Below are positions 2,164 to 31,953 of a stretch of 64,000 bases of DNA, in pieces (position 1 is the first letter of the stretch; each line of letters begins with the position of its first letter). The notes below the pieces were generated by a model that ran no database searches, was not told where the DNA came from, and saw nothing but the letters and a program-made list of their open reading frames with translations. Source of the stretch: Minisyncoccota bacterium (GTDB lineage: Bacteria; Patescibacteriota; Minisyncoccia; JBAYJV01); the NCBI GenBank assembly GCA_041664925.1, contig JBAYJV010000001.1, positions 293,262 to 357,261 on the forward strand, given 5' to 3'. The translations under genes and the position numbers were made by a program.

Positions 2164-2589
2164 TTATAACAAATCCTTGGGTTCTTTTCTTAAAATTTTC
2201 AATTTGTCAAAATCTTTATCGAAAGAAATAACTGTCATTTTTTTATTAAGAATGTCTGGGCAAGAAGCAATAAGCGCATCAATAAATTTTACATTATGTT
2301 TCTCGTATAGCTCAAGCATCACAGTAGCGTTGTGTTTGTCTCTTATTTTTAAATACTTCATTTCTGATATGCTTTTTAAGATTGTTGTTATCTGTTGTTT
2401 TTCCAGTCCATAAAAACTTTTTAGCGTCCACTGGATTTCTGCTAAAATTAAGGTCGAAATTGTTGCGCTAATTTCCCCTTGTTTAATTTTATTAAACAAA
2501 AGCTCGCAGTCCTTGGCGGATTGTTTATCGTCCTTGACGATCATTCGCAAAAAAATATTCGTATCAATAAAATAATTACCCTCTTTCAT
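2164..2589 (-). CDS. vapC: PIN-domain ribonuclease toxin (VapC-like)
   Basis: N-terminal YFIDTNIFL, conserved acidic residues (LAEI, FIDALIA, SFDKDF); 14-nt overlap with upstream antitoxin gene. Confidence 0.7.
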   Translation of the reverse strand: MKEGNYFIDTNIFLRMIVKDDKQSAKDCELLFNKIKQGEISATISTLILAEIQWTLKSFYGLEKQQITTILKSISEMKYLKIRDKHNATVMLELYEKHNVKFIDALIASCPDILNKKMTVISFDKDFDKLKILRKEPKDLL

Positions 2590-2815
2590 ATTTTTTTTCC
2601 ATCATTTCTCTAGCCAATAGAGGATCGGTTTTCTTTTTTATTATAATTTGTTCGGCAACTTTTATAAAATCTTTGACAGGCTTCACTTTAATAACTTTCT
2701 CGCCACGAGAAAAACTAACAGAAACTTTGTCTGTTCTTGTTAATCCAAAAATATCTCTGATTTTTTTAGGAATAGTGATTTGACCTTTTTGAGTCATTGC
2801 AGTAAAGTAAGTCAT
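2576..2815 (-). CDS. vapB: AbrB/MazE/SpoVT-type antitoxin (VapB-like)
   Basis: 79 aa, swapped-hairpin motif TQKGQITIPKKIRDIFGL; overlaps PIN gene start. Confidence 0.6.
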   Translation of the reverse strand: MTYFTAMTQKGQITIPKKIRDIFGLTRTDKVSVSFSRGEKVIKVKPVKDFIKVAEQIIIKKKTDPLLAREMMEKKYERG

Positions 2816-2891: not shown

Positions 2892-3410
2892 TTACTCAGT
2901 GAATCTAAAAGTAGAAAGAATCTGATTATAAATATTCATGTATTTCTCGTGTGTTGCTTCGTGGGCATAGGCAACATAACTTATTGAATAAAACTTACTA
3001 TTCTTGCCTACTTTTGTAATAGTAGCTGGTCCAGAGCTTGGCGCAGCTCCTTCCTGCCATTGTCTTCCTTCTAGTCCTCCAAGTGTTACAATCTTATAGT
3101 TATCTTCTGGCAAGTAAGAGTCCGTGCTCACATCTATTCTTATAATATAATAAGAATTTTCATAAGAGTCCTCTATTCCCGTTATCAAAACCTTTTCTTG
3201 TGATGGATCTTCTTTTGTCAGCCCGATTTGATTTAGACCCTCACTGTTCAACTCCCACTCCCTTGGATACCACACTTCATATCCTAGTTCTCGATTTGTG
3301 TATTTTCCCCAATTCAGACTTTCTCCCTTTGGCCAAAAGAACCACGCAATGAAGACACCGACCGTAATGATTAACAAAGTCAGGGCAATGATGAAATTTT
3401 TTTTCTTCAT
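2892..3410 (-). CDS. hypothetical membrane-anchored/secreted protein
   Basis: N-terminal KKK + hydrophobic helix (signal anchor), no recognizable catalytic motif. Confidence 0.4.
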   Translation of the reverse strand: MKKKNFIIALTLLIITVGVFIAWFFWPKGESLNWGKYTNRELGYEVWYPREWELNSEGLNQIGLTKEDPSQEKVLITGIEDSYENSYYIIRIDVSTDSYLPEDNYKIVTLGGLEGRQWQEGAAPSSGPATITKVGKNSKFYSISYVAYAHEATHEKYMNIYNQILSTFRFTE

Positions 3411-3497
3411 ATGATTTTAATCTTATTGCTCTATTTTACTTTACTTTTTTATATTTTCCAAGTTAAGATATAAGGAATAATCTGATATAATGAAAAT

Positions 3498-3989
3498 ATG
3501 GAATTCAAAACAAACAATTTCGAAGAAACAGTGAACTTGGGTAAAAAATTGGTCCTAGATTTTTTAGAATCGGAGCAGCACAGAAAATCAGCGCTTGTTA
3601 TTGTGCTTGAAGGCGATCTGGGAGCAGGAAAAACTACTATTACCCAAGGATTCGCTCAAGCATTGGGCGTCGAGAGCTGGATTAAAAGCCCAACCTTTGT
3701 TCTTATGAGAGAGCACAAGATTAGTCCGGAATACGAAGTACGAAGTTCGAAGTACGAAGAAAAAAACAGTAAACCAAATCGCTTAACTACCCTAATTCAT
3801 ATTGATTGCTACAGAGTTGATAATCCAGACGCCTTAATTGAAATCGGGATTAAAGATATATTAGCTGATCCTCAAAATATTGTTTTTATTGAATGGGGAG
3901 AAAAAATCGCAAAATTACTGCCAAAAAATATCATAAGAATAAAAATTAAACATTTAAAAGAAGATCAAAGAAAAATTACAATAAATTAA
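3498..3989 (+). CDS. tsaE: tRNA threonylcarbamoyladenosine biosynthesis ATPase TsaE (YjeE), with in-frame low-complexity insertion
   Basis: P-loop LEGDLGAGKTTITQGF, SPTF...HIDCYRV motifs of TsaE; contains 4x heptamer TACGAAG array (3732..3759) encoding extra EYEVRSSKYEE segment. Confidence 0.75.
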   Translation: MEFKTNNFEETVNLGKKLVLDFLESEQHRKSALVIVLEGDLGAGKTTITQGFAQALGVESWIKSPTFVLMREHKISPEYEVRSSKYEEKNSKPNRLTTLIHIDCYRVDNPDALIEIGIKDILADPQNIVFIEWGEKIAKLLPKNIIRIKIKHLKEDQRKITIN

Positions 3990-4118
3990 ATCCGAAAATC
4001 GAAACAATATTTAATCTCGAAATCATAAATTCTAAACGGTTTAAAACATTAAATATTAGAATTTTGAATTTGTTTCGAATTTCGTGCTTCGAATTTCAAA
4101 TTTGTTATAAGGTTTAGT

Positions 4119-5111
4119 ATGAAACGTTTGCTCATTATCGACTCTCACGCTCTTCTTCACCGCGCTTATCATGCGCTTCCTCCTTTAACTAATTCAAAAG
4201 GAGAACCCATAGGCGCAATCTACGGTTTCGCCTCAATCCTTGTTAGCAATATTGCCCAGCTAAAACCAGATTACCTTGTTGCCTGTTTTGATTTGCCTAA
4301 GCCAACTTTAAGGCATCAAAAATTTGCTGATTACAAAGCAAAAAGACCGAAAGCGCCAGATGATTTGATTGTTCAGTTTAAGCTTGTAAAGCGTTTCTTA
4401 AAAAATCTCGATATTCCTATTCTTGAAAAAGAAGGTTATGAGGCTGATGATGCGATTGGAACTGTTATCGCTCAAGTTACTCAAAAATATCCTGATATGG
4501 AAAATATTGTTTTAACAGGAGACTTAGATACGCTCCAGCTTATTAATAAAAATACCAAAATTCTCACTCCTAAACGCGGTATATCTGATCCGATTCTTTA
4601 TGACGAGAAAGAACTTGATAAAAAATACCCTGGACTTGAACCAAAGCACATTGTTGAATTTAAAGGATTAAAGGGAGATCAGTCTGATAATATTCCTGGC
4701 GTTCCCGGTATAGGAGAAAAAACTGCCCTAACGCTCATAAGGCGGTTTGGCAATCTTGAAAAACTTTATGAAACCGTAGAAAACGAAAAAGAAATTGAAC
4801 AATTGAAGAAAGAAAAAATTCTATCGGTTTCTGTTGTTAAAAAACTTAAGGAAAACAAAGACTTGGCCTTCTTTAGTCGAGAACTGGCAACAATTTATCG
4901 AGATGTACCCATTGAGTTCAACCTTAAAAACGCTTCCTGGGAACCAAATCCCGTTAGAGTTGAAAATGCCTTAATGGATTTTGGTCTTCGTTCTTTAGTA
5001 AGAAGATACCAAGCGATATCACAGGGAATTGAACTACCAAAATTTGAAAAAAAACCAGAAGAAAAAAAGGAAGAAAAAAAAGAACCCGTAAGGCAGCATT
5101 CTTTATTTTAA
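4119..5111 (+). CDS. stand-alone 5'-3' exonuclease (Pol I N-terminal/FEN-like domain)
   Basis: LIIDSHALLHRAYHALP start, acidic metal sites (EADD, TGDLD), helix-hairpin-helix GVPGIGEKTA; 330 aa without polymerase domain. Confidence 0.8.
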   Translation: MKRLLIIDSHALLHRAYHALPPLTNSKGEPIGAIYGFASILVSNIAQLKPDYLVACFDLPKPTLRHQKFADYKAKRPKAPDDLIVQFKLVKRFLKNLDIPILEKEGYEADDAIGTVIAQVTQKYPDMENIVLTGDLDTLQLINKNTKILTPKRGISDPILYDEKELDKKYPGLEPKHIVEFKGLKGDQSDNIPGVPGIGEKTALTLIRRFGNLEKLYETVENEKEIEQLKKEKILSVSVVKKLKENKDLAFFSRELATIYRDVPIEFNLKNASWEPNPVRVENALMDFGLRSLVRRYQAISQGIELPKFEKKPEEKKEEKKEPVRQHSLF

Positions 5112-6434: not shown

Positions 6435-7475
6435 ATGTCAAGAAAAAAGACTAAAAAAATTAAGGCCATTGGATTTTTAATAATATTATTGCCTTTGATT
6501 TTGTTTTTTGTATTGAGCAATAAAAATACAGAAATTAAAAAAGAATCATCGGAAACTCCTCCAACTCAAACACTAAATACAGATTTAAGTCCTATCTCGG
6601 GCTTGCCATGCAAAAATTACAATCGCCGACCTTTTGCCATTATGCTTGCCGGAGATGAAGTCGCTAGGCCTTTGTCCGGTCTTCAATCTGCTGACTTAGT
6701 TGTTGAAATGCCCGTTTTAATATCAGGCATGAATCGCTTAATGGCTGTGTATGTTTGTGGCAACCCAGAGGAAATTGGTAGTGTCCGATCAGCCAGACAT
6801 GATTTTATTCCTCTTGCTATGGGCCTTGATGCCATTTTTGCTCACTGGGGCGGATCTTCGTTTGCACTAGATAAGTTGAATGCCGGTATTATGGATAATA
6901 TCGACGCTCTTTTATACTCTCAAACGGCATTTTGGCGCCAATCTGGTATCCCAGCTCCTCACAATGGCTTTACTAGTATTGAAAAATTAACCAATCAGGC
7001 TAATAAACTTAATTATCGCATGGAGAACAAATTTGAAGGATACCCACACAAAAATGTCAAAATTCAAAGCTCAAATGTCAAAAGCAGGTTGATTATTGGT
7101 TATCCTGATATTAATAAAGTTTGGTGGGATTATAATCCCGAAACCAACGAATATGCAAGGTGGCGCGGATCAAAAGAAGAAAAAGACTATAATTCTAATC
7201 TTCAGGTTAAATCAAAAAATATTGTAGTCATGAGAGCTAATTCTCGTTTTATGGAAGATCAGTACATTGATGTTGATATTGAAGGAGAAGGAACTGCAGA
7301 ATTTTATTTAAATGGCCAAAAGATTGAAGGCACTTGGAAAAAAGAAGGTTCGTATCAGCCAACCAAACTTTATTTTTATGATAATCTTGGTAAAGAAATT
7401 GAGTTTGTGCCGGGACAAATTTGGATCGAGGTTATTGAGCCAGACAAAATTGTAACTTACGAAGAAATAAAATGA
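6435..7475 (+). CDS. hypothetical membrane-anchored extracytoplasmic protein (possibly DUF3048-like)
   Basis: N-terminal basic stretch + TM helix, no catalytic motif recognised; ATGA overlap with downstream holA. Confidence 0.35.
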   Translation: MSRKKTKKIKAIGFLIILLPLILFFVLSNKNTEIKKESSETPPTQTLNTDLSPISGLPCKNYNRRPFAIMLAGDEVARPLSGLQSADLVVEMPVLISGMNRLMAVYVCGNPEEIGSVRSARHDFIPLAMGLDAIFAHWGGSSFALDKLNAGIMDNIDALLYSQTAFWRQSGIPAPHNGFTSIEKLTNQANKLNYRMENKFEGYPHKNVKIQSSNVKSRLIIGYPDINKVWWDYNPETNEYARWRGSKEEKDYNSNLQVKSKNIVVMRANSRFMEDQYIDVDIEGEGTAEFYLNGQKIEGTWKKEGSYQPTKLYFYDNLGKEIEFVPGQIWIEVIEPDKIVTYEEIK

Positions 7476-9952: not shown

Positions 9953-10270
9953 TTATTTTTTTTCTTTCTTTGGTTTTTCCGTTTCTTTTTTTGTTTCAAC
10001 CTTTTCTTTCGAGATTTTATTGATCGCTACTGTTAGTCGAGATTTCTTTCTTGAAGCATTGCCTTTCTTTATAATGTCCTTCTTAGCTGCCTTGTCTATC
10101 GCTTTATAAACATCGGGGAGGATTTTTTCCGCCTGGTCTTTCTTTCCATCTTTAATTAAAACTCTGAGATTTTTAACAAGATCTCTCATTTTCTTTTTAT
10201 ATTGATAATTTATTGCTCTCTTTTTTTCTGACTGACGTAATGCTTTTTTTGCTGATTGTGTTTGTGGCAT
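9953..10270 (-). CDS. rpsT: 30S ribosomal protein S20 with Lys-rich C-terminal extension
   Basis: N-terminal SAKKALRQSEKKRAIN matches S20 signature; highly basic. Confidence 0.7.
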   Translation of the reverse strand: MPQTQSAKKALRQSEKKRAINYQYKKKMRDLVKNLRVLIKDGKKDQAEKILPDVYKAIDKAAKKDIIKKGNASRKKSRLTVAINKISKEKVETKKETEKPKKEKK

Positions 10271-10323
10271 ATTAAATTTAATTTAGATTTAGTTGACTAT
10301 TAGTAACTAAGAATATCACAAAA

Positions 10324-11013
10324 TTATTTTTTTTCAAGATCTATGAGACATTTTGTCCAATTTTTGCTTGTTAGCTTGTCTATATCTAGGGCTTTTTCCA
10401 GTTTAAATTTACCTATTTTTGTCCTTGTAAGTTTTTCCAAATAAGCTCCATTGCTAAGCTTTTGGCCAATATCGTGGGCTAATGATCTAATGTATGTACC
10501 GGCAGAACATAAAATCTCCAATTGAAGAAGTGGGGCATCATAATTCAAAAGCGCTATTTTCTTTATTAATATTTCAACTGGCTCAAGGTCTATTTTTTTT
10601 CCTTCTCTTGCTAATTTATACGCCCTTCTGCCTTGAATTTTCTTTGCTGAAAAAGATGGGGGAATCTGATTAATTTTTCCAATAAAACTTTTTAAAATGA
10701 TCCTTATTTCTTTTTCAGAAGGGAGCGTCTTCTTATAAACATTCATTATACTGCCTGTTTTATCGTAGGTATCAGTTTCTGCGCCTATTTTCATAGTTGC
10801 AATATATTCTTTGTCGCTATTTAGGAATTTTCTTTGTTCTTTTGTTGCATCCCGCCCAATTAAAATAATTAGCAATCCTTCGGCAAAAGGATCTAGCGTG
10901 CCCGCGTGGCCAACTTTTTTAGCACCGGTCGTTCTTCTTACATAATTTACAATATCATGAGAACTTGGTCCTGCGGGTTTATTTATTAAAATAATCCCTG
11001 ATGTTTCAGTCAT
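10324..11013 (-). CDS. truB: tRNA pseudouridine(55) synthase TruB
   Basis: GIILINKPAGPSSHD...KKVGHAGTLDPFAEGLL (catalytic Asp in GTLDP), 8-bp overlap with uvrB. Confidence 0.85.
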   Translation of the reverse strand: MTETSGIILINKPAGPSSHDIVNYVRRTTGAKKVGHAGTLDPFAEGLLIILIGRDATKEQRKFLNSDKEYIATMKIGAETDTYDKTGSIMNVYKKTLPSEKEIRIILKSFIGKINQIPPSFSAKKIQGRRAYKLAREGKKIDLEPVEILIKKIALLNYDAPLLQLEILCSAGTYIRSLAHDIGQKLSNGAYLEKLTRTKIGKFKLEKALDIDKLTSKNWTKCLIDLEKK

Positions 11014-13926: not shown

Positions 13927-14976
13927 ATGCCTACAGAATTTATTAAAGATAAAAAAATTTGGGACAAGCTTATCACAAACCAAGACTCAGGCTTTATGCA
14001 GTCTTGGGATTGGGGAGAATTTAAAGAAAAATTGGGCCATAAGATTTGGCGCATGGCCATTAAGGGAAACGGTCAATGCCAGTATGCTCAAATTATTAAA
14101 CATCGATTGCCTTTGAAAAAATCATACTTTTATATTCCCCAAAGCCCAATTTTTAACTCTCAACTTTCAACTATCAACCATCAACCAATGGAATTATTGA
14201 TTAAGGACATCTGTAAATTAGCAAAGAAAGAAAAGGCGGTATTTATAAAGTGGGAACCGCTTGCCGAATCAAGCGCCGATATTAAAAGATTGAAAAAAGC
14301 TGGATTTGTTGAATCAAAAAACATTCAACCGAAAGATACCTTAGTTTTAGATCTTTCACAAACAGAAGAAGAAATTTTCCAAAACTTCCATAGCAAACAT
14401 AGATACAATATAAAACTGGCTCAAAAAAAAGGCATTCAAATAAAAATCCTTGATTCTGATGGTGAATTTGAAGAATTTTACGGACTGGTAAAGAAAACTG
14501 ACGAAAGAAAGCATATAAAATCATTTCCCAAACAATATTACAAAGAGTTATTCGAGCTTGCTAAAAAATCTGCAAAAACCAAGACATCGCCTGATCTTGA
14601 AATTAGGTTTTTTGGAGCCTATTTTGGCAAAAACATCGCTGCTGGGCTAGTTTTGGTTGTTTGGAATGATAAGGCCATGTATCTTATTGGGGCAAACGAC
14701 TATGAGTATCGACAATGCATGGCTCCCCACCTGCTCCAGTGGGAAACCATTAAAGAGTCTCGAAAGATTGGAGCAAAAGAATATGATTTTTGGGGTATAA
14801 TTAGAAAAGAGGATTTTGAGTCAGATAAAGAATTTGAAAAACACCCGTGGGCAGGCATCACAAGGTTTAAAATAGGTTTTGGTGGGAAAACTGTACAGTT
14901 TGAAAAAACTTTTGACTATATTGTCTCGCCTTTTTGGTATAAAATCTATAAACTAGCGATAAAGCTTAAAATGTAA
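13927..14976 (+). CDS. FemAB-family peptidyltransferase (peptidoglycan interpeptide bridge formation, FemX/MurM-like)
   Basis: FMQSWDWGEFK start and overall FemAB (COG2348) pattern; adjacent to murE; contains in-frame heptamer-like array 14148..14176. Confidence 0.65.
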   Translation: MPTEFIKDKKIWDKLITNQDSGFMQSWDWGEFKEKLGHKIWRMAIKGNGQCQYAQIIKHRLPLKKSYFYIPQSPIFNSQLSTINHQPMELLIKDICKLAKKEKAVFIKWEPLAESSADIKRLKKAGFVESKNIQPKDTLVLDLSQTEEEIFQNFHSKHRYNIKLAQKKGIQIKILDSDGEFEEFYGLVKKTDERKHIKSFPKQYYKELFELAKKSAKTKTSPDLEIRFFGAYFGKNIAAGLVLVVWNDKAMYLIGANDYEYRQCMAPHLLQWETIKESRKIGAKEYDFWGIIRKEDFESDKEFEKHPWAGITRFKIGFGGKTVQFEKTFDYIVSPFWYKIYKLAIKLKM

Positions 14977-15044
14977 AGCGTAAAACGCAAAACAACAACT
15001 TAAAACTCAAAACTGTTTTGCATTTTCCTGCTTATTGTGGGCAA

Positions 15045-26091: not shown

Positions 26092-26125
26092 GCGCCTAAA
26101 AGCGCTGCTTTTTTTATTCTATATT
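26092..26125. terminator. bidirectional terminator (CAGCGC-ctaaaa-GCGCTG + T7)
   Basis: hairpin flanked by A8 and T7. Confidence 0.55.
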
Positions 26126-26157
26126 CTAACTTCCAACTTCTAGCTTCTAGCTTCTAA
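26118..26157. repeat. heptanucleotide tandem array (CTTCTAG/CTTCTAA/CTTCCAA, about 5 units) in 3' UTR of dciA-like gene
   Basis: period-7 repeats directly visible. Confidence 0.6.
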
Positions 26158-26462
26158 CGCGCCACCTTTACTTTTATTTCCTTAATTAAAGAACCAATCA
26201 ATACTCGGTTGGTTTTGTCTTTTATTTCATCCTGATAAAATCTCAGTTCTTGCGCCAGATAACTATTGGCACATTTAACATACAGTACCGATCCTCTGAA
26301 TTCAAACTTCATATCCTGATCTAAGACGCATTTCTCAAAACCTAACAACTTCTCAATAACTTTTCTTGCTTCCTTAAAAACTTCAATTCTTTCAAGTCCT
26401 CTTTTAAACCTCGGATCTTTTTTTACTTTATTAATAGCATAATTTATACTGCTGAAAGCCAT
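26154..26462 (-). CDS. DUF721-family protein (DciA-like candidate replicative-helicase operator/loader), adjacent to dnaN
   Basis: 102 aa, position immediately downstream of dnaA-dnaN, C-terminal pattern LYVKCANSYLAQEL...RVLIGSLIKEIKVKV resembling DUF721. Confidence 0.45.
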   Translation of the reverse strand: MAFSSINYAINKVKKDPRFKRGLERIEVFKEARKVIEKLLGFEKCVLDQDMKFEFRGSVLYVKCANSYLAQELRFYQDEIKDKTNRVLIGSLIKEIKVKVAR

Positions 26463-30878: not shown

Positions 30879-31706
30879 TTAGTTTAATTTGAAAAGCGTT
30901 TTTGCATTTTGGGTGGTGACTTGAGCAACTTCTTGAAAACCAATGCCTTTTATTTCCGCAATCCTTTCCGCGACATATTTTACATACAGTGGCAGATTTT
31001 TTTTGCCTCTGAATGGTACAGGCGCAACATAAGGACAATCAGTTTCCACCATCAATTTTTCTAGCGGGGTTTCTTTTATAATTTCATCGTATGCCTTAGT
31101 AAAAGTGATGACGCCTGTAAAAGAAATTAAAAATCCTAGCTCAATCATTTCTCTGGCATCTTCTTTCGTTCCAGAAAAGAAATGAGCAGTGCCGCGAAGC
31201 GGTATTTCGAATTTCGAATTTCGAATTTCGAATTTAAGGATCTTTACAAGATCCTTCCATGCTTCTCGGCAGTGGATAATAATCGGAAGATTGAGTTTTT
31301 GAGCAAACAAAACCTGTTGTTTAAAAGACTTCTTTTGAGCTTCTTTGTCTTCTTCTGTTTTTGCGTAAGTATAGTCTAGTCCGATTTCGCCAATCGCAAC
31401 GACTTTTTTGCTTTTTGCGAGTATCTCATATTTTTTGGCATCAAATTCTTCGGGACGAGATTTAAAACTTGGTTCGACTTCATTGACATCGACTTGGTTG
31501 GGAATAGCGTGGATGGGGTGAAGGCCGATGGCGGCCCAAACGCCAGTTTTGTATCTTTCGGCAATTTCAACGGCGCGCTTGCTGGTTTCATATTGCGAGC
31601 CGACATTGATTAATTGAATATCATTTTTAAAACATTGATCAATAACCTGGTTATGATCATCTTTAAAGGCGTTGAAATTGAGATGGGCGTGGGTGTCGAT
31701 TAACAT
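30879..31706 (-). CDS. tatD: TatD-family metal-dependent DNase/hydrolase (ATG start at 31706; track used upstream TTG at 31721) with in-frame heptamer-repeat insertion
   Basis: MLIDTHAHLNF start, TIM-barrel His/Asp/Glu metal ligands (IGEIGLDY, IIHCREA); 4.5x ATTTCGA array 31204..31236. Confidence 0.85.
   Translation of the reverse strand: MLIDTHAHLNFNAFKDDHNQVIDQCFKNDIQLINVGSQYETSKRAVEIAERYKTGVWAAIGLHPIHAIPNQVDVNEVEPSFKSRPEEFDAKKYEILAKSKKVVAIGEIGLDYTYAKTEEDKEAQKKSFKQQVLFAQKLNLPIIIHCREAWKDLVKILKFEIRNSKFEIPLRGTAHFFSGTKEDAREMIELGFLISFTGVITFTKAYDEIIKETPLEKLMVETDCPYVAPVPFRGKKNLPLYVKYVAERIAEIKGIGFQEVAQVTTQNAKTLFKLN
31204..31236. repeat. 4.5-unit tandem heptanucleotide repeat (ATTTCGA) inside tatD coding sequence
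   Basis: directly visible; encodes KFEIRNSKFEIP. Confidence 0.7.
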
Positions 31707-31953
31707 AAACTTAAAGCGCAAAGCTTAAAGCGAAAAACAACAACTTAAAACTTAAAATTGAGAATAGTAGCAACAAACATCTTTTAGTCATTCTGAGTGC
31801 AACGAAGAATCCTGGGATCTTTCGGTCGCCTTGGGCGACCTCAAGATGACATTACTTTTATTTTAAAGGTTTTTAGGGAAAAAGAAAGCCGTGAGCTTGT
31901 ATTTTTTCAATAAAAATATAAAATGAAAATATGCAAAAAGGAGGAATAAAAAT

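Follow-up and report, generated by a model that had tools for sequence, protein, structure and literature searches.

The genes and repeats at the locus

We analysed a 64,000-nucleotide (nt) stretch of DNA from a Minisyncoccota bacterium (contig JBAYJV010000001.1; hereafter the window), in which tsaE, the gene of an ATPase subunit of the N6-threonylcarbamoyladenosine (t6A) pathway, carries a tandem heptanucleotide repeat within its coding sequence. The original prediction, made from the letters of the DNA, had placed four tandem 7-mers between the SPTF and H-DxYR motifs of TsaE; the sequence itself, Tandem Repeats Finder (TRF) and the Pfam and TIGR profiles all agree with this. The features of the gene are as follows.

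3498..3989, + strand: tsaE, 163 amino acids (aa), gene of a t6A-pathway ATPase subunit, in which the tract lies (PF02367, TIGR00150, motifs, AlphaFold2 model)
3687..3815, + strand: segment from SPTF to HIDCYR, hypervariable in length, 43 aa in the window (homologue alignment, loop-length histograms, PDB alignment)
3723..3759, + strand: full array in the register of the relatives, AGTCCGG AATACGA AGTACGA AGTTCGA AGTACGA AG, that is, five units and two bases (in-register DNA alignment)
3732..3759, + strand: the tract TACGAAG TACGAAG TTCGAAG TACGAAG, coding for Y79-E87 (TRF, sequence, pattern statistics)
3732..3788, + strand: 19-aa insertion Y79-T97, YEVRSSKYEEKNSKPNRLT, relative to solved TsaE (a single 19-column gap against 1HTW/1FL9)

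The product of 3498..3989 is a TsaE protein. It scores 112.2 bits against PF02367 (cutoff 26.6) and 99.3 bits against TIGR00150 (cutoff 60.1), and it contains the Walker A motif GDLGAGKTT, SPTF, HIDCYR and IEWGE, all of them invariant across the homologue alignment; the roles of these motifs in TsaE (Walker A GxxGxGKT, SPT(F/Y), HxDxYR and EW) are described in PMC6009658. The NCBI record for the identical protein, from a Candidatus Paceibacterota metagenome-assembled genome, is likewise labelled TsaE. An AlphaFold2 model based on 24 homologues has a predicted local distance difference test score (pLDDT) of 88.1 and a predicted template modelling score (pTM) of 0.85; a Foldseek search with this model returned 1HTW with a template modelling (TM) score of 0.77-0.80, and the top nine matches are all TsaE, which places the protein in the TsaE fold.

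The tract occupies positions 3732-3759, between SPTF (S64) and HIDCYR (H101), and is reported by TRF with period 7, 4.0 copies, 90% matches and the consensus TACGAAG. The dimer pattern TWCGAAGTWCGAAG matches three times in the 64-kb window, every time in the tract, against 0.06 matches expected from dinucleotide-preserving shuffles, and none of 100 such shuffles reached three matches. The tract is therefore a microsatellite in the usual sense of at least three to four head-to-tail copies of a short unit, above what chance provides. The genome is AT-rich (35% GC) and the TRF list holds many weak repeats, so we considered whether chance, low-complexity composition or an assembly artefact might account for the tract. 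We regard this as negligible: besides the count of the dimer pattern, Markov simulations yielded no period-7 arrays, the identical sequence is present in independent assemblies from different pipelines, and the tract is far shorter than one sequencing read.

The segment that hosts the tract is 43 aa long here; in most of the Patescibacteria relatives it measures 20, 27-28 or 32-33 aa, and Haemophilus influenzae TsaE has 24 aa; among homologues, the loop from SPTF to HxDxYR spans 20 to 62 aa. Alignment with 1HTW/1FL9 (H. influenzae TsaE) opens a single 19-residue gap facing Y79-T97 (nt 3732-3788), and the TsaE of Thermotoga maritima is about 20 residues shorter than the window protein at the same site. 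An insertion had thus been rightly recognized from the letters, and its size, put at about 17 aa, was slightly underestimated. Much longer insertions, such as ...NKKSNVRTVSRSTRQNLDSSLRSEFKNQNDDLKIKSSEPS..., lie in the same loop of three TsaE relatives of 173-182 aa and 55-60% identity (P0011-P0013).

In the T. maritima TsaBDE structure, the SPT(F/Y)T peptide reaches into the TsaD active site, and the HxDxYR Tyr is stacked on TsaD (PMC6009658); therefore, both ends of the SPTF-HIDCYR segment are anchored at the interface. The contacts with TsaB and TsaD in that complex involve these flanking motifs, helix alpha3 and the beta5-beta6 connection (PMC6009658). In the AlphaFold2 model of the window protein, the residues 82-92, located between the strands 70-74 and 98-103, have a pLDDT below 50. 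These residues of the insertion are predicted to be disordered, and the model places the product of the tract in the floppy tip of a surface hairpin. The insertion probably lengthens the distal turn away from the TsaBD interface.

Since the unit measures 7 nt, only three-unit changes (21 nt, 7 aa) leave tsaE in frame. We computed the products of altered tracts: with one or two units more or less, they are 86-100 aa long and devoid of HIDCYR and all that lies downstream of it, whereas with three units more or less the frame is restored and the product has 156 or 170 aa. That gain or loss of a single unit would frameshift tsaE, as originally proposed, is thus upheld.

Stability of the tract in its own lineage

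Two independent Logan assemblies (SRR6484324 and SRR18595301; L001 and L002) carry a tsaE gene that matches that of the window base for base. In seven contigs of relatives with 85-86% protein identity, which come from several samples (L003, L004/L087 as one contig, L005, L088, L099, L100 and L101), the segment keeps the same length and the same register and differs by substitutions only. The array of L003, L088, L099 and L005 reads AGTTCGA AGTACGA AGTTCGA AGTGCAG AACACAA AG, while in the window the 5' unit (AGTCCGG) of the 3723-3759 array is the decayed one; the end units decayed by substitution therefore differ between the window clade and the 85-86% relatives. Divergence reaches 0.29-0.31 in the tract, 0.20-0.29 in the remaining loop and 0.115-0.139 in the gene core, so that the tract diverges about 2.3 times as fast as the core. 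Relatives carrying the same segment without its repeat structure had been named at the outset as evidence of an ancient fixed insertion; the present alignments approach this, as the segment is old and fixed in length in the relatives and its repeat structure is partly decayed there.

No unit-wise copy-number polymorphism of the tract was found in the three identical assemblies and the seven relative contigs, all of which are assembled consensus sequences, and no variants differing by 7 aa were found within 90% identity clusters. Alleles of the ON/OFF type, differing in repeat number, were likewise absent from all contigs examined, in which the gene is in frame and the copy number unchanged. 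A search of JGI metagenome contigs with an exact-flank pattern allowing a gap of 10-40 nt gave no match, not even to the reference allele, in a collection that lacks this strain. In these alignments, the tract is length-stable in this lineage and decays by relaxed point mutation.

These results bear on the choice that had been left between a stable tract and slipped-strand phase variation. According to the latter, the tract would be a contingency locus, in which gain or loss of a single unit reversibly switches tsaE and TsaE-dependent t6A synthesis. The geometry is suited to it, as the unit is no multiple of three and a change by one unit truncates TsaE. We nevertheless consider it very unlikely. 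The copy number is constant in all contigs compared, over four lineages, and the 90% clusters hold no length variants; the window tract has just four copies and is interrupted (TTCGAAG); its length has been kept across about 12-14% nucleotide divergence of the core while about 30% substitutions accrued in the tract; and tsaE is a housekeeping gene, whereas phase-variable genes are typically those of surface structures or restriction-modification systems (general knowledge; PMC2651432, PMC3315296). Stability, the first of the two options, thus agrees with the identical assemblies and the constant length in relatives, and the second finds no counterpart in the copy numbers.

Period-7 arrays in the window and across Patescibacteria

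We scanned the window for arrays with a self-match criterion of 80% and at least 3.5 copies, the expectation being derived from first-order Markov simulations. Four distinct period-7 arrays (five detector segments) were detected, against 0.0 in the simulations, while periods 5, 6, 8 and 9 remain at background level; in the TRF output, too, all arrays of at least 3.5 copies have period 7. Four arrays are translated in frame, in tsaE, in the open reading frame (ORF) 6435..7475, in a FemAB-family gene and in tatD. The units are TWCGAAG, TTCGAAA, CAACTWT, TTCTAAC and AAATGTC, and a TTCGAA core is common to the arrays of tsaE, tatD and the spacer 3' of tsaE. Apart from the tsaE tract and this spacer, the window contains the following.

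30879..31721, - strand: tatD, TatD-family hydrolase gene (PF01026, 266 bits)
31204..31235, - strand: perfect (TCGAAAT)x4.6, or (ATTTCGA) on the other strand, in frame in tatD, coding for KFEIRNSKFEI (TRF, 100% matches)
13927..14976, + strand: FemAB-family gene (PF02388, 157 bits)
14153..14188, + strand: imperfect period-7 array, CAACTWT-like, about 4.4 copies, in frame in the FemAB-family gene, coding for FNSQLSTINHQP (TRF 14155-14185, 87% matches; scan)
7052..7082, + strand: decayed period-7 array, AAATGTC-like, 4.4 copies, in frame in ORF 6435..7475, coding for NVKIQSSNVKS (TRF, 75% matches)
26115..26159, no strand assigned: period-7 array TTCTAAC/TTCTAGC, about 5 copies, mostly intergenic, overlapping the stop region and abutting the 3' end of ORF 26154..26462 (- strand) (TRF 26124-26158; scan)

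In the relatives L094 and L099, the gene syntenic to ORF 6435..7475 is DUF3048. A recent insertion of the FemAB array can be dismissed: the segment is equally long in L094, a 55% relative, and the FemAB tract is therefore old. A degenerate period-7 array (TAAAACT-like, about 8 copies, 71% matches) is also present at 14960-15014, where it runs over the stop of the FemAB-family gene (14976) to near the start of a Mur-ligase-like ORF (15018).

To place these arrays in the context of the clade, we gathered, independently of the window, a background set of 80 species-level Patescibacteria tsaE loci (1.27 Mb) from a TsaE-alignment search of genome contigs; among the matches listed, these are relatives with at most 44% identity. 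The set contains 112 period-7 arrays, against 35, 77, 25 and 7 arrays of periods 5, 6, 8 and 9, respectively, and the control, 50 kb of Escherichia coli around its own tsaE, contains no period-7 array. The TsaE loop (SPTF to HxDxYR, 6,990 nt over the background loci) holds 15 of the arrays, that is, 21.5 per 10 kb, which is 44-fold above other coding DNA (0.49 per 10 kb) and 6-fold above intergenic DNA (3.6 per 10 kb). A uniform distribution would place 0.62 arrays in the loop (P = 3e-16), and the intergenic rate 2.5 (P = 7e-8). L062 adds a sixteenth array-bearing TsaE locus, with a compound array of about 13 units at 10184-10279, in frame in an intact ORF; its first part has about 9 units of CAGMAGC and its second about 4 of the near-complementary ACTGGCA, and the loop peptide is SAARSQQPATSGQKPAARSQQDWKQATGNWQ. 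Heptamer arrays are thus found at the TsaE loop of about one in five related species, and all 16 array-bearing genes are intact and in frame. Over the whole set, 71 of the 112 arrays lie in ORFs, although, base for base, intergenic DNA is the denser in arrays. Neither this excess of period-7 arrays, in the window and in the clade, nor their recurrence at the TsaE loop had been part of the original prediction.

The units at the TsaE loop vary by lineage (CAATCTA, AAAATCA, AAGTCAA, GAAATCC, CGATCCA, AAACCCC, AACATGG, AAGATTT, AAGTTCA and others), and 63 perfect runs contain 44 distinct canonical units. This diversity argues for an origin of the arrays in local sequence and against copies of a mobile element. 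It rules out a single mobile repeat element, and in-frame insertions of the type of the Rickettsia palindromic elements do not fit either, as the units differ by site and by lineage. Furthermore, at the TsaE site the units agree with the codons of the conserved [KR]F[KQ] context around them, as in L094, where AAG TTC AAA corresponds to AAGTTCA.

TsaE is not the only protein concerned. In-frame heptamer arrays occur in the background loci in the genes of DNA polymerase I (Pol I), transketolase, RecJ, peptidase U32, a Mur ligase and in holA (about 10 copies), as well as in those of FemAB, a 5'-3' exonuclease, a T2SSE ATPase and a Wzy_C protein. The arrays in Pol I, RecJ, transketolase, the Mur ligase and holA are single, in contrast to the recurrent ones of TsaE and TatD. 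The TatD loop that hosts the window array is a second heptamer-array hot spot: it measures 27 to 55 residues from motif to motif among relatives, its peptides there include YEVRNTKYKIRN, KSKIKNQKSKI and KPKTQNLKPNL, and its residue identity at offset 7 is 18.1%, against 7.6% for the other offsets pooled. L085 carries about ten perfect CTCCATG copies at 14748-14819 (a perfect stretch of 65 nt), in frame near the N-terminus of a homologue of DNA polymerase III delta (holA), where they code for (HAPCSML)n; AACATGG arrays are present in tsaE and FemAB of the same genome.

The lengths of the arrays and loops point to steps of three units. In ORFs, the lengths of perfect arrays cluster at 30-31 nt, or about 4.3 copies; a one-unit seed and a microhomology of 2-3 bases, to which three units (+21 nt, +7 aa) are added, give this length. 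Loop lengths of TsaE have modes at 20 and 27-28 aa among relatives, and a step of this kind is exemplified by KRF-KNFYH and KRF-KIYDLRF-KNFYH, the latter coded by (AGATTTA)n. In 120 homologues, residue identity within the TsaE loop is 13.6% at offset 7, against 6.4-7.6% at offsets 3-6 and 8-11 (7.0% pooled).

The arrays also appear to turn over. L053 and L038, 59% identical outside the loop, both have 4.4 copies at the orthologous site, perfectly homogeneous within each array and bordered by conserved flanks; between the two, every copy of the unit differs by one base (AATCAAA versus AGTCAAA). L094, whose protein is 59% identical to that of the window (64% outside the loop), has a perfect (AGTTCAA)x4, against AGTWCGA units in the window clade. 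Such homogeneous arrays with lineage-specific units are a case of concerted evolution between species. On a shorter time scale, the coding array (AGTTCAA)x4 is identical in the five contigs L094-L098, while exactly 14 nt (TCATTTTGCATTTT, two units) are gone from the intergenic array 3' of tsaE in L096 (around 1715-1730), compared with L094 (10534-10566). As the coding array 300 nt upstream of the shortened one is invariant, slippage is active but filtered in the ORF.

Phase variation of tsaE can draw on two of these results, namely that unit-wise slippage is real in the intergenic arrays of the clade (L096) and that perfect 4.3-copy arrays are kept at this site by many lineages, which selection for mutability could produce. 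The reading frames of the array-bearing background genes, 16 out of 16 of them open, argue the other way.

A different possibility is that the insertion (EYEVRSSKYEE..., with alternating hydrophobic and polar residues) is a selected hairpin extension of TsaE, for example a lineage-specific interaction surface, the DNA repeat being a trace of its origin. The 6-fold excess of the hot spot over intergenic DNA is not obviously explained by tolerance alone, the length of the segment is constant in the window clade, and similar heptad peptides (YEVR-S/N-x-KY) occur in the TatD loops of relatives. On the other hand, disorder is predicted where the pLDDT falls below 50 (residues 82-92), the segment evolves about 2.3 times as fast as the gene core, L006 does without 11 of these residues, units and peptides are wholly different between lineages, and the regions of TsaE in contact with TsaB and TsaD in the T. 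maritima complex do not include this turn (PMC6009658). We therefore hold an adaptive role of the peptide to be unlikely, though less so than phase variation.

The spacer that follows tsaE bears on a role of the repeats as DNA or RNA.

3992..4103, + strand: spacer that separates tsaE from the 5'-3' exonuclease gene and contains heptamer arrays of the TTCGAA type in opposed orientation, CCGAAAATCGAAAC ... GTTTCGAATTTCGTGCTTCGAATTTC (TRF, RNA fold)

TRF reports period 7, 4.4 copies and 70% matches at 4073-4103, and the arrays of the spacer pair into a long imperfect hairpin of -24.3 kcal/mol (z = -2.5 versus shuffles). In relatives, too, intergenic heptamer arrays are often inverted pairs (L094 10460-10494 with 10534-10566, L010 2998-3075, L022 18803-18873), and such paired arrays may be terminator-like structures. 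One could thus imagine that the TTCGAA-type repeats of tsaE act in cis, for instance as protein-binding iterons or by pairing with the CTTCGAA/TTTCGAA repeats of the spacer about 330 nt downstream; related TTCGAA-core heptamers in tsaE, in the spacer and in tatD, the somewhat better folding of the spacer than of its shuffles and the inverted pairs of relatives would all be in line with this. However, Rfam returned no known RNA family for 3300-4300, the unit sequence is not conserved even at 85% identity (the 3' units are decayed) and is wholly different in other lineages, and TTCGAA is not enriched in the window (20 sites observed, 17.5 expected), which also disposes of it as a restriction or binding site. 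A cis-acting element is accordingly highly improbable, marginally more so than phase variation.

Several neighbours of tsaE are recorded here for completeness. Upstream, at 2164-2815 (- strand), overlapping genes encode a PIN-domain toxin (141 aa) and a MazE-type antitoxin (79 aa), a pair that is kept in the relatives L001-L004 and L099. Downstream, tsaE is adjoined at 4119-5111 by a stand-alone 5'-3' exonuclease of 330 aa (PF02739 and PF01367) without a polymerase domain, which ends in a low-complexity KKPEEKKEEKKEP tail coded by 12/15-nt repeats at 5046-5086; the syntenic gene of L041 is a full-length Pol I. Whether flap-processing capacity is relevant to repeat expansion is a matter of speculation.

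Origin of the tract and comparison with known systems

We consider it probable that the tract is a slippage-born heptanucleotide microsatellite, locked in frame and decaying in a length-tolerant disordered loop, and that it is no switch. In this scheme, replication would have slipped on local sequence at the tip of the strand-turn-strand between SPTF and HIDCYR and so given rise to the tract. Single-unit slips would be far more frequent but, being null alleles, they would be purged by purifying selection, and the array would thereby be locked in frame. In the window lineage, the length would have been fixed for long, point substitutions would erode the array at the relaxed rate that also holds for the loop around it, and the product would be a disordered, dispensable extension of the surface hairpin. 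Over deeper time scales, arrays would contract and re-expand, which would give homogeneous arrays, lineage-specific units and loop growth by 7 aa. As only rare three-unit events would remove arrays from ORFs, both the stability observed here and the accumulation at tolerant loops would ensue. Slippage is thus the presumable generating mechanism, consistent with the polymerase-contact hypothesis for the heptamer excess, as relayed in PMC4692102 and PMC4679880; the purging of out-of-frame states would explain both the stability and the hot spot; and the inserted peptide is probably dispensable.

Several points weigh against this explanation. Firstly, simple slippage leaves unaccounted for how an array can pass from one to four copies within an ORF without frameshifted states, and likewise the 6-fold excess of the loop over intergenic DNA; long perfect arrays are moreover commoner in coding than in intergenic DNA, for which it gives no reason, and positive selection on the loop is possible. 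Secondly, a stretch of 33 nt is missing at this site from L006/P0004, which is 89% identical in the part that aligns and is the closest of the relatives devoid of the segment. While the segment would on this evidence be dispensable, 33 nt fits neither 7 nor 21, which does not support a clean deletion by multiples of 7, and at least this event was no clean three-unit step. Thirdly, the coding and intergenic classes behind the densities depend on a crude ORF heuristic, the Fisher P values, including the offset-7 statistics, are overstated because the homologues are phylogenetically related, and the invariance of the tract rests on assembled sequence, beneath which low-frequency copy-number variants may exist.

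A further reading is that the arrays in TsaE, TatD and other housekeeping genes of Patescibacteria are selected hypermutable sites rather than passive relics, at which frequent single-unit slips would maintain a standing fraction of tsaE-null cells or genome copies and hence heterogeneous t6A-dependent translation in these ultra-small episymbionts. If this were true, selection for mutability, or a dedicated activity generating period-7 repeats, would explain the continual regeneration of perfect arrays at one site, and the same reading would also account for a density in the loop above that of intergenic DNA and for perfect arrays being commoner in coding DNA. We rate it as improbable as phase variation of the window tract.

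Taken alone, the window tract appears to be an ordinary decaying microsatellite in a tolerant loop, with no apparent regulation of an essential gene. The wider pattern suggests that Patescibacteria lengthen surface loops, such as those of TsaE and TatD, through heptamer arrays in steps of 7 aa. Should this hold genome-wide, it would provide a concrete mutational mechanism for many lineage-specific insertions in proteins of the candidate phyla radiation (CPR), it would pose the testable puzzle of how an ORF gets past frameshifted intermediates of +1 and +2 units, and it would mark sites where assemblies and gene callers may mishandle real frameshift polymorphism. Our literature search on heptanucleotide repeats in CPR/Patescibacteria and on TsaE insertions in CPR found no direct precedent, nor any description of an in-frame heptamer hot spot such as the TsaE loop. 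The excess of heptamer simple sequence repeats (SSRs) in bacteria is already known, and it is the in-frame hot spots for which we found no description.

Phase-variable SSR loci, such as those of H. influenzae (PMC2651432, PMC3315296), resemble the tsaE tract in that a non-triplet unit lies in an ORF and a change by one unit inactivates the gene. Unlike them, the tract is invariant in copy number in the contigs compared, short, interrupted and constant in length over substantial divergence, and its gene is a housekeeping one without a link to surface structures or restriction-modification.

The heptanucleotide long SSRs (LSSRs) are another point of comparison. According to PMC4692102 and PMC4679880, which relay Mrazek et al. 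2007, the long SSRs with the strongest over-representation in many bacteria are heptamers, and slippage linked to polymerase contacts has been proposed as the cause. As in the window and its relatives, these are 7-nt tandem units of local origin with an excess specific to period 7; slippage of the polymerase is presumed for them, and copy numbers change between close strains, as they do here in the intergenic array of L096. However, the cases described there are mostly intergenic, non-triplet units being disfavoured in coding DNA, whereas ours lie in frame in conserved housekeeping genes; the arrays reported here also differ from them in clustering at about 4.3 copies, in recurring at the same loop in many lineages and in belonging to Patescibacteria.

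Genome-specific heptamer families, such as the tandem heptanucleotides of cyanobacteria, GGGAATC in Xanthomonas and GGGGA(T/C)T in Nostoc (PMC4692102) or TAACTGA in Beggiatoaceae (PMC4679880), share with the present arrays the period of 7, arrays of 2-6 or more copies and intergenic inverted pairs able to form hairpins. Such a family has one dominant unit per genome and is almost entirely intergenic; here, we found neither a dominant unit, with 44 units in 63 perfect runs, nor a predominance of intergenic arrays, many being translated.

The tandem repeats of Borgs create new intrinsically disordered protein regions (PMC9879509). They are comparable to the arrays studied here in being recent, independently arising tandem repeats within ORFs that add disordered segments. 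Borgs, however, are archaeal extrachromosomal elements, whereas the arrays of TsaE and its fellow genes have a 7-nt unit, reside on a bacterial chromosome and need three-unit steps for any change in frame.

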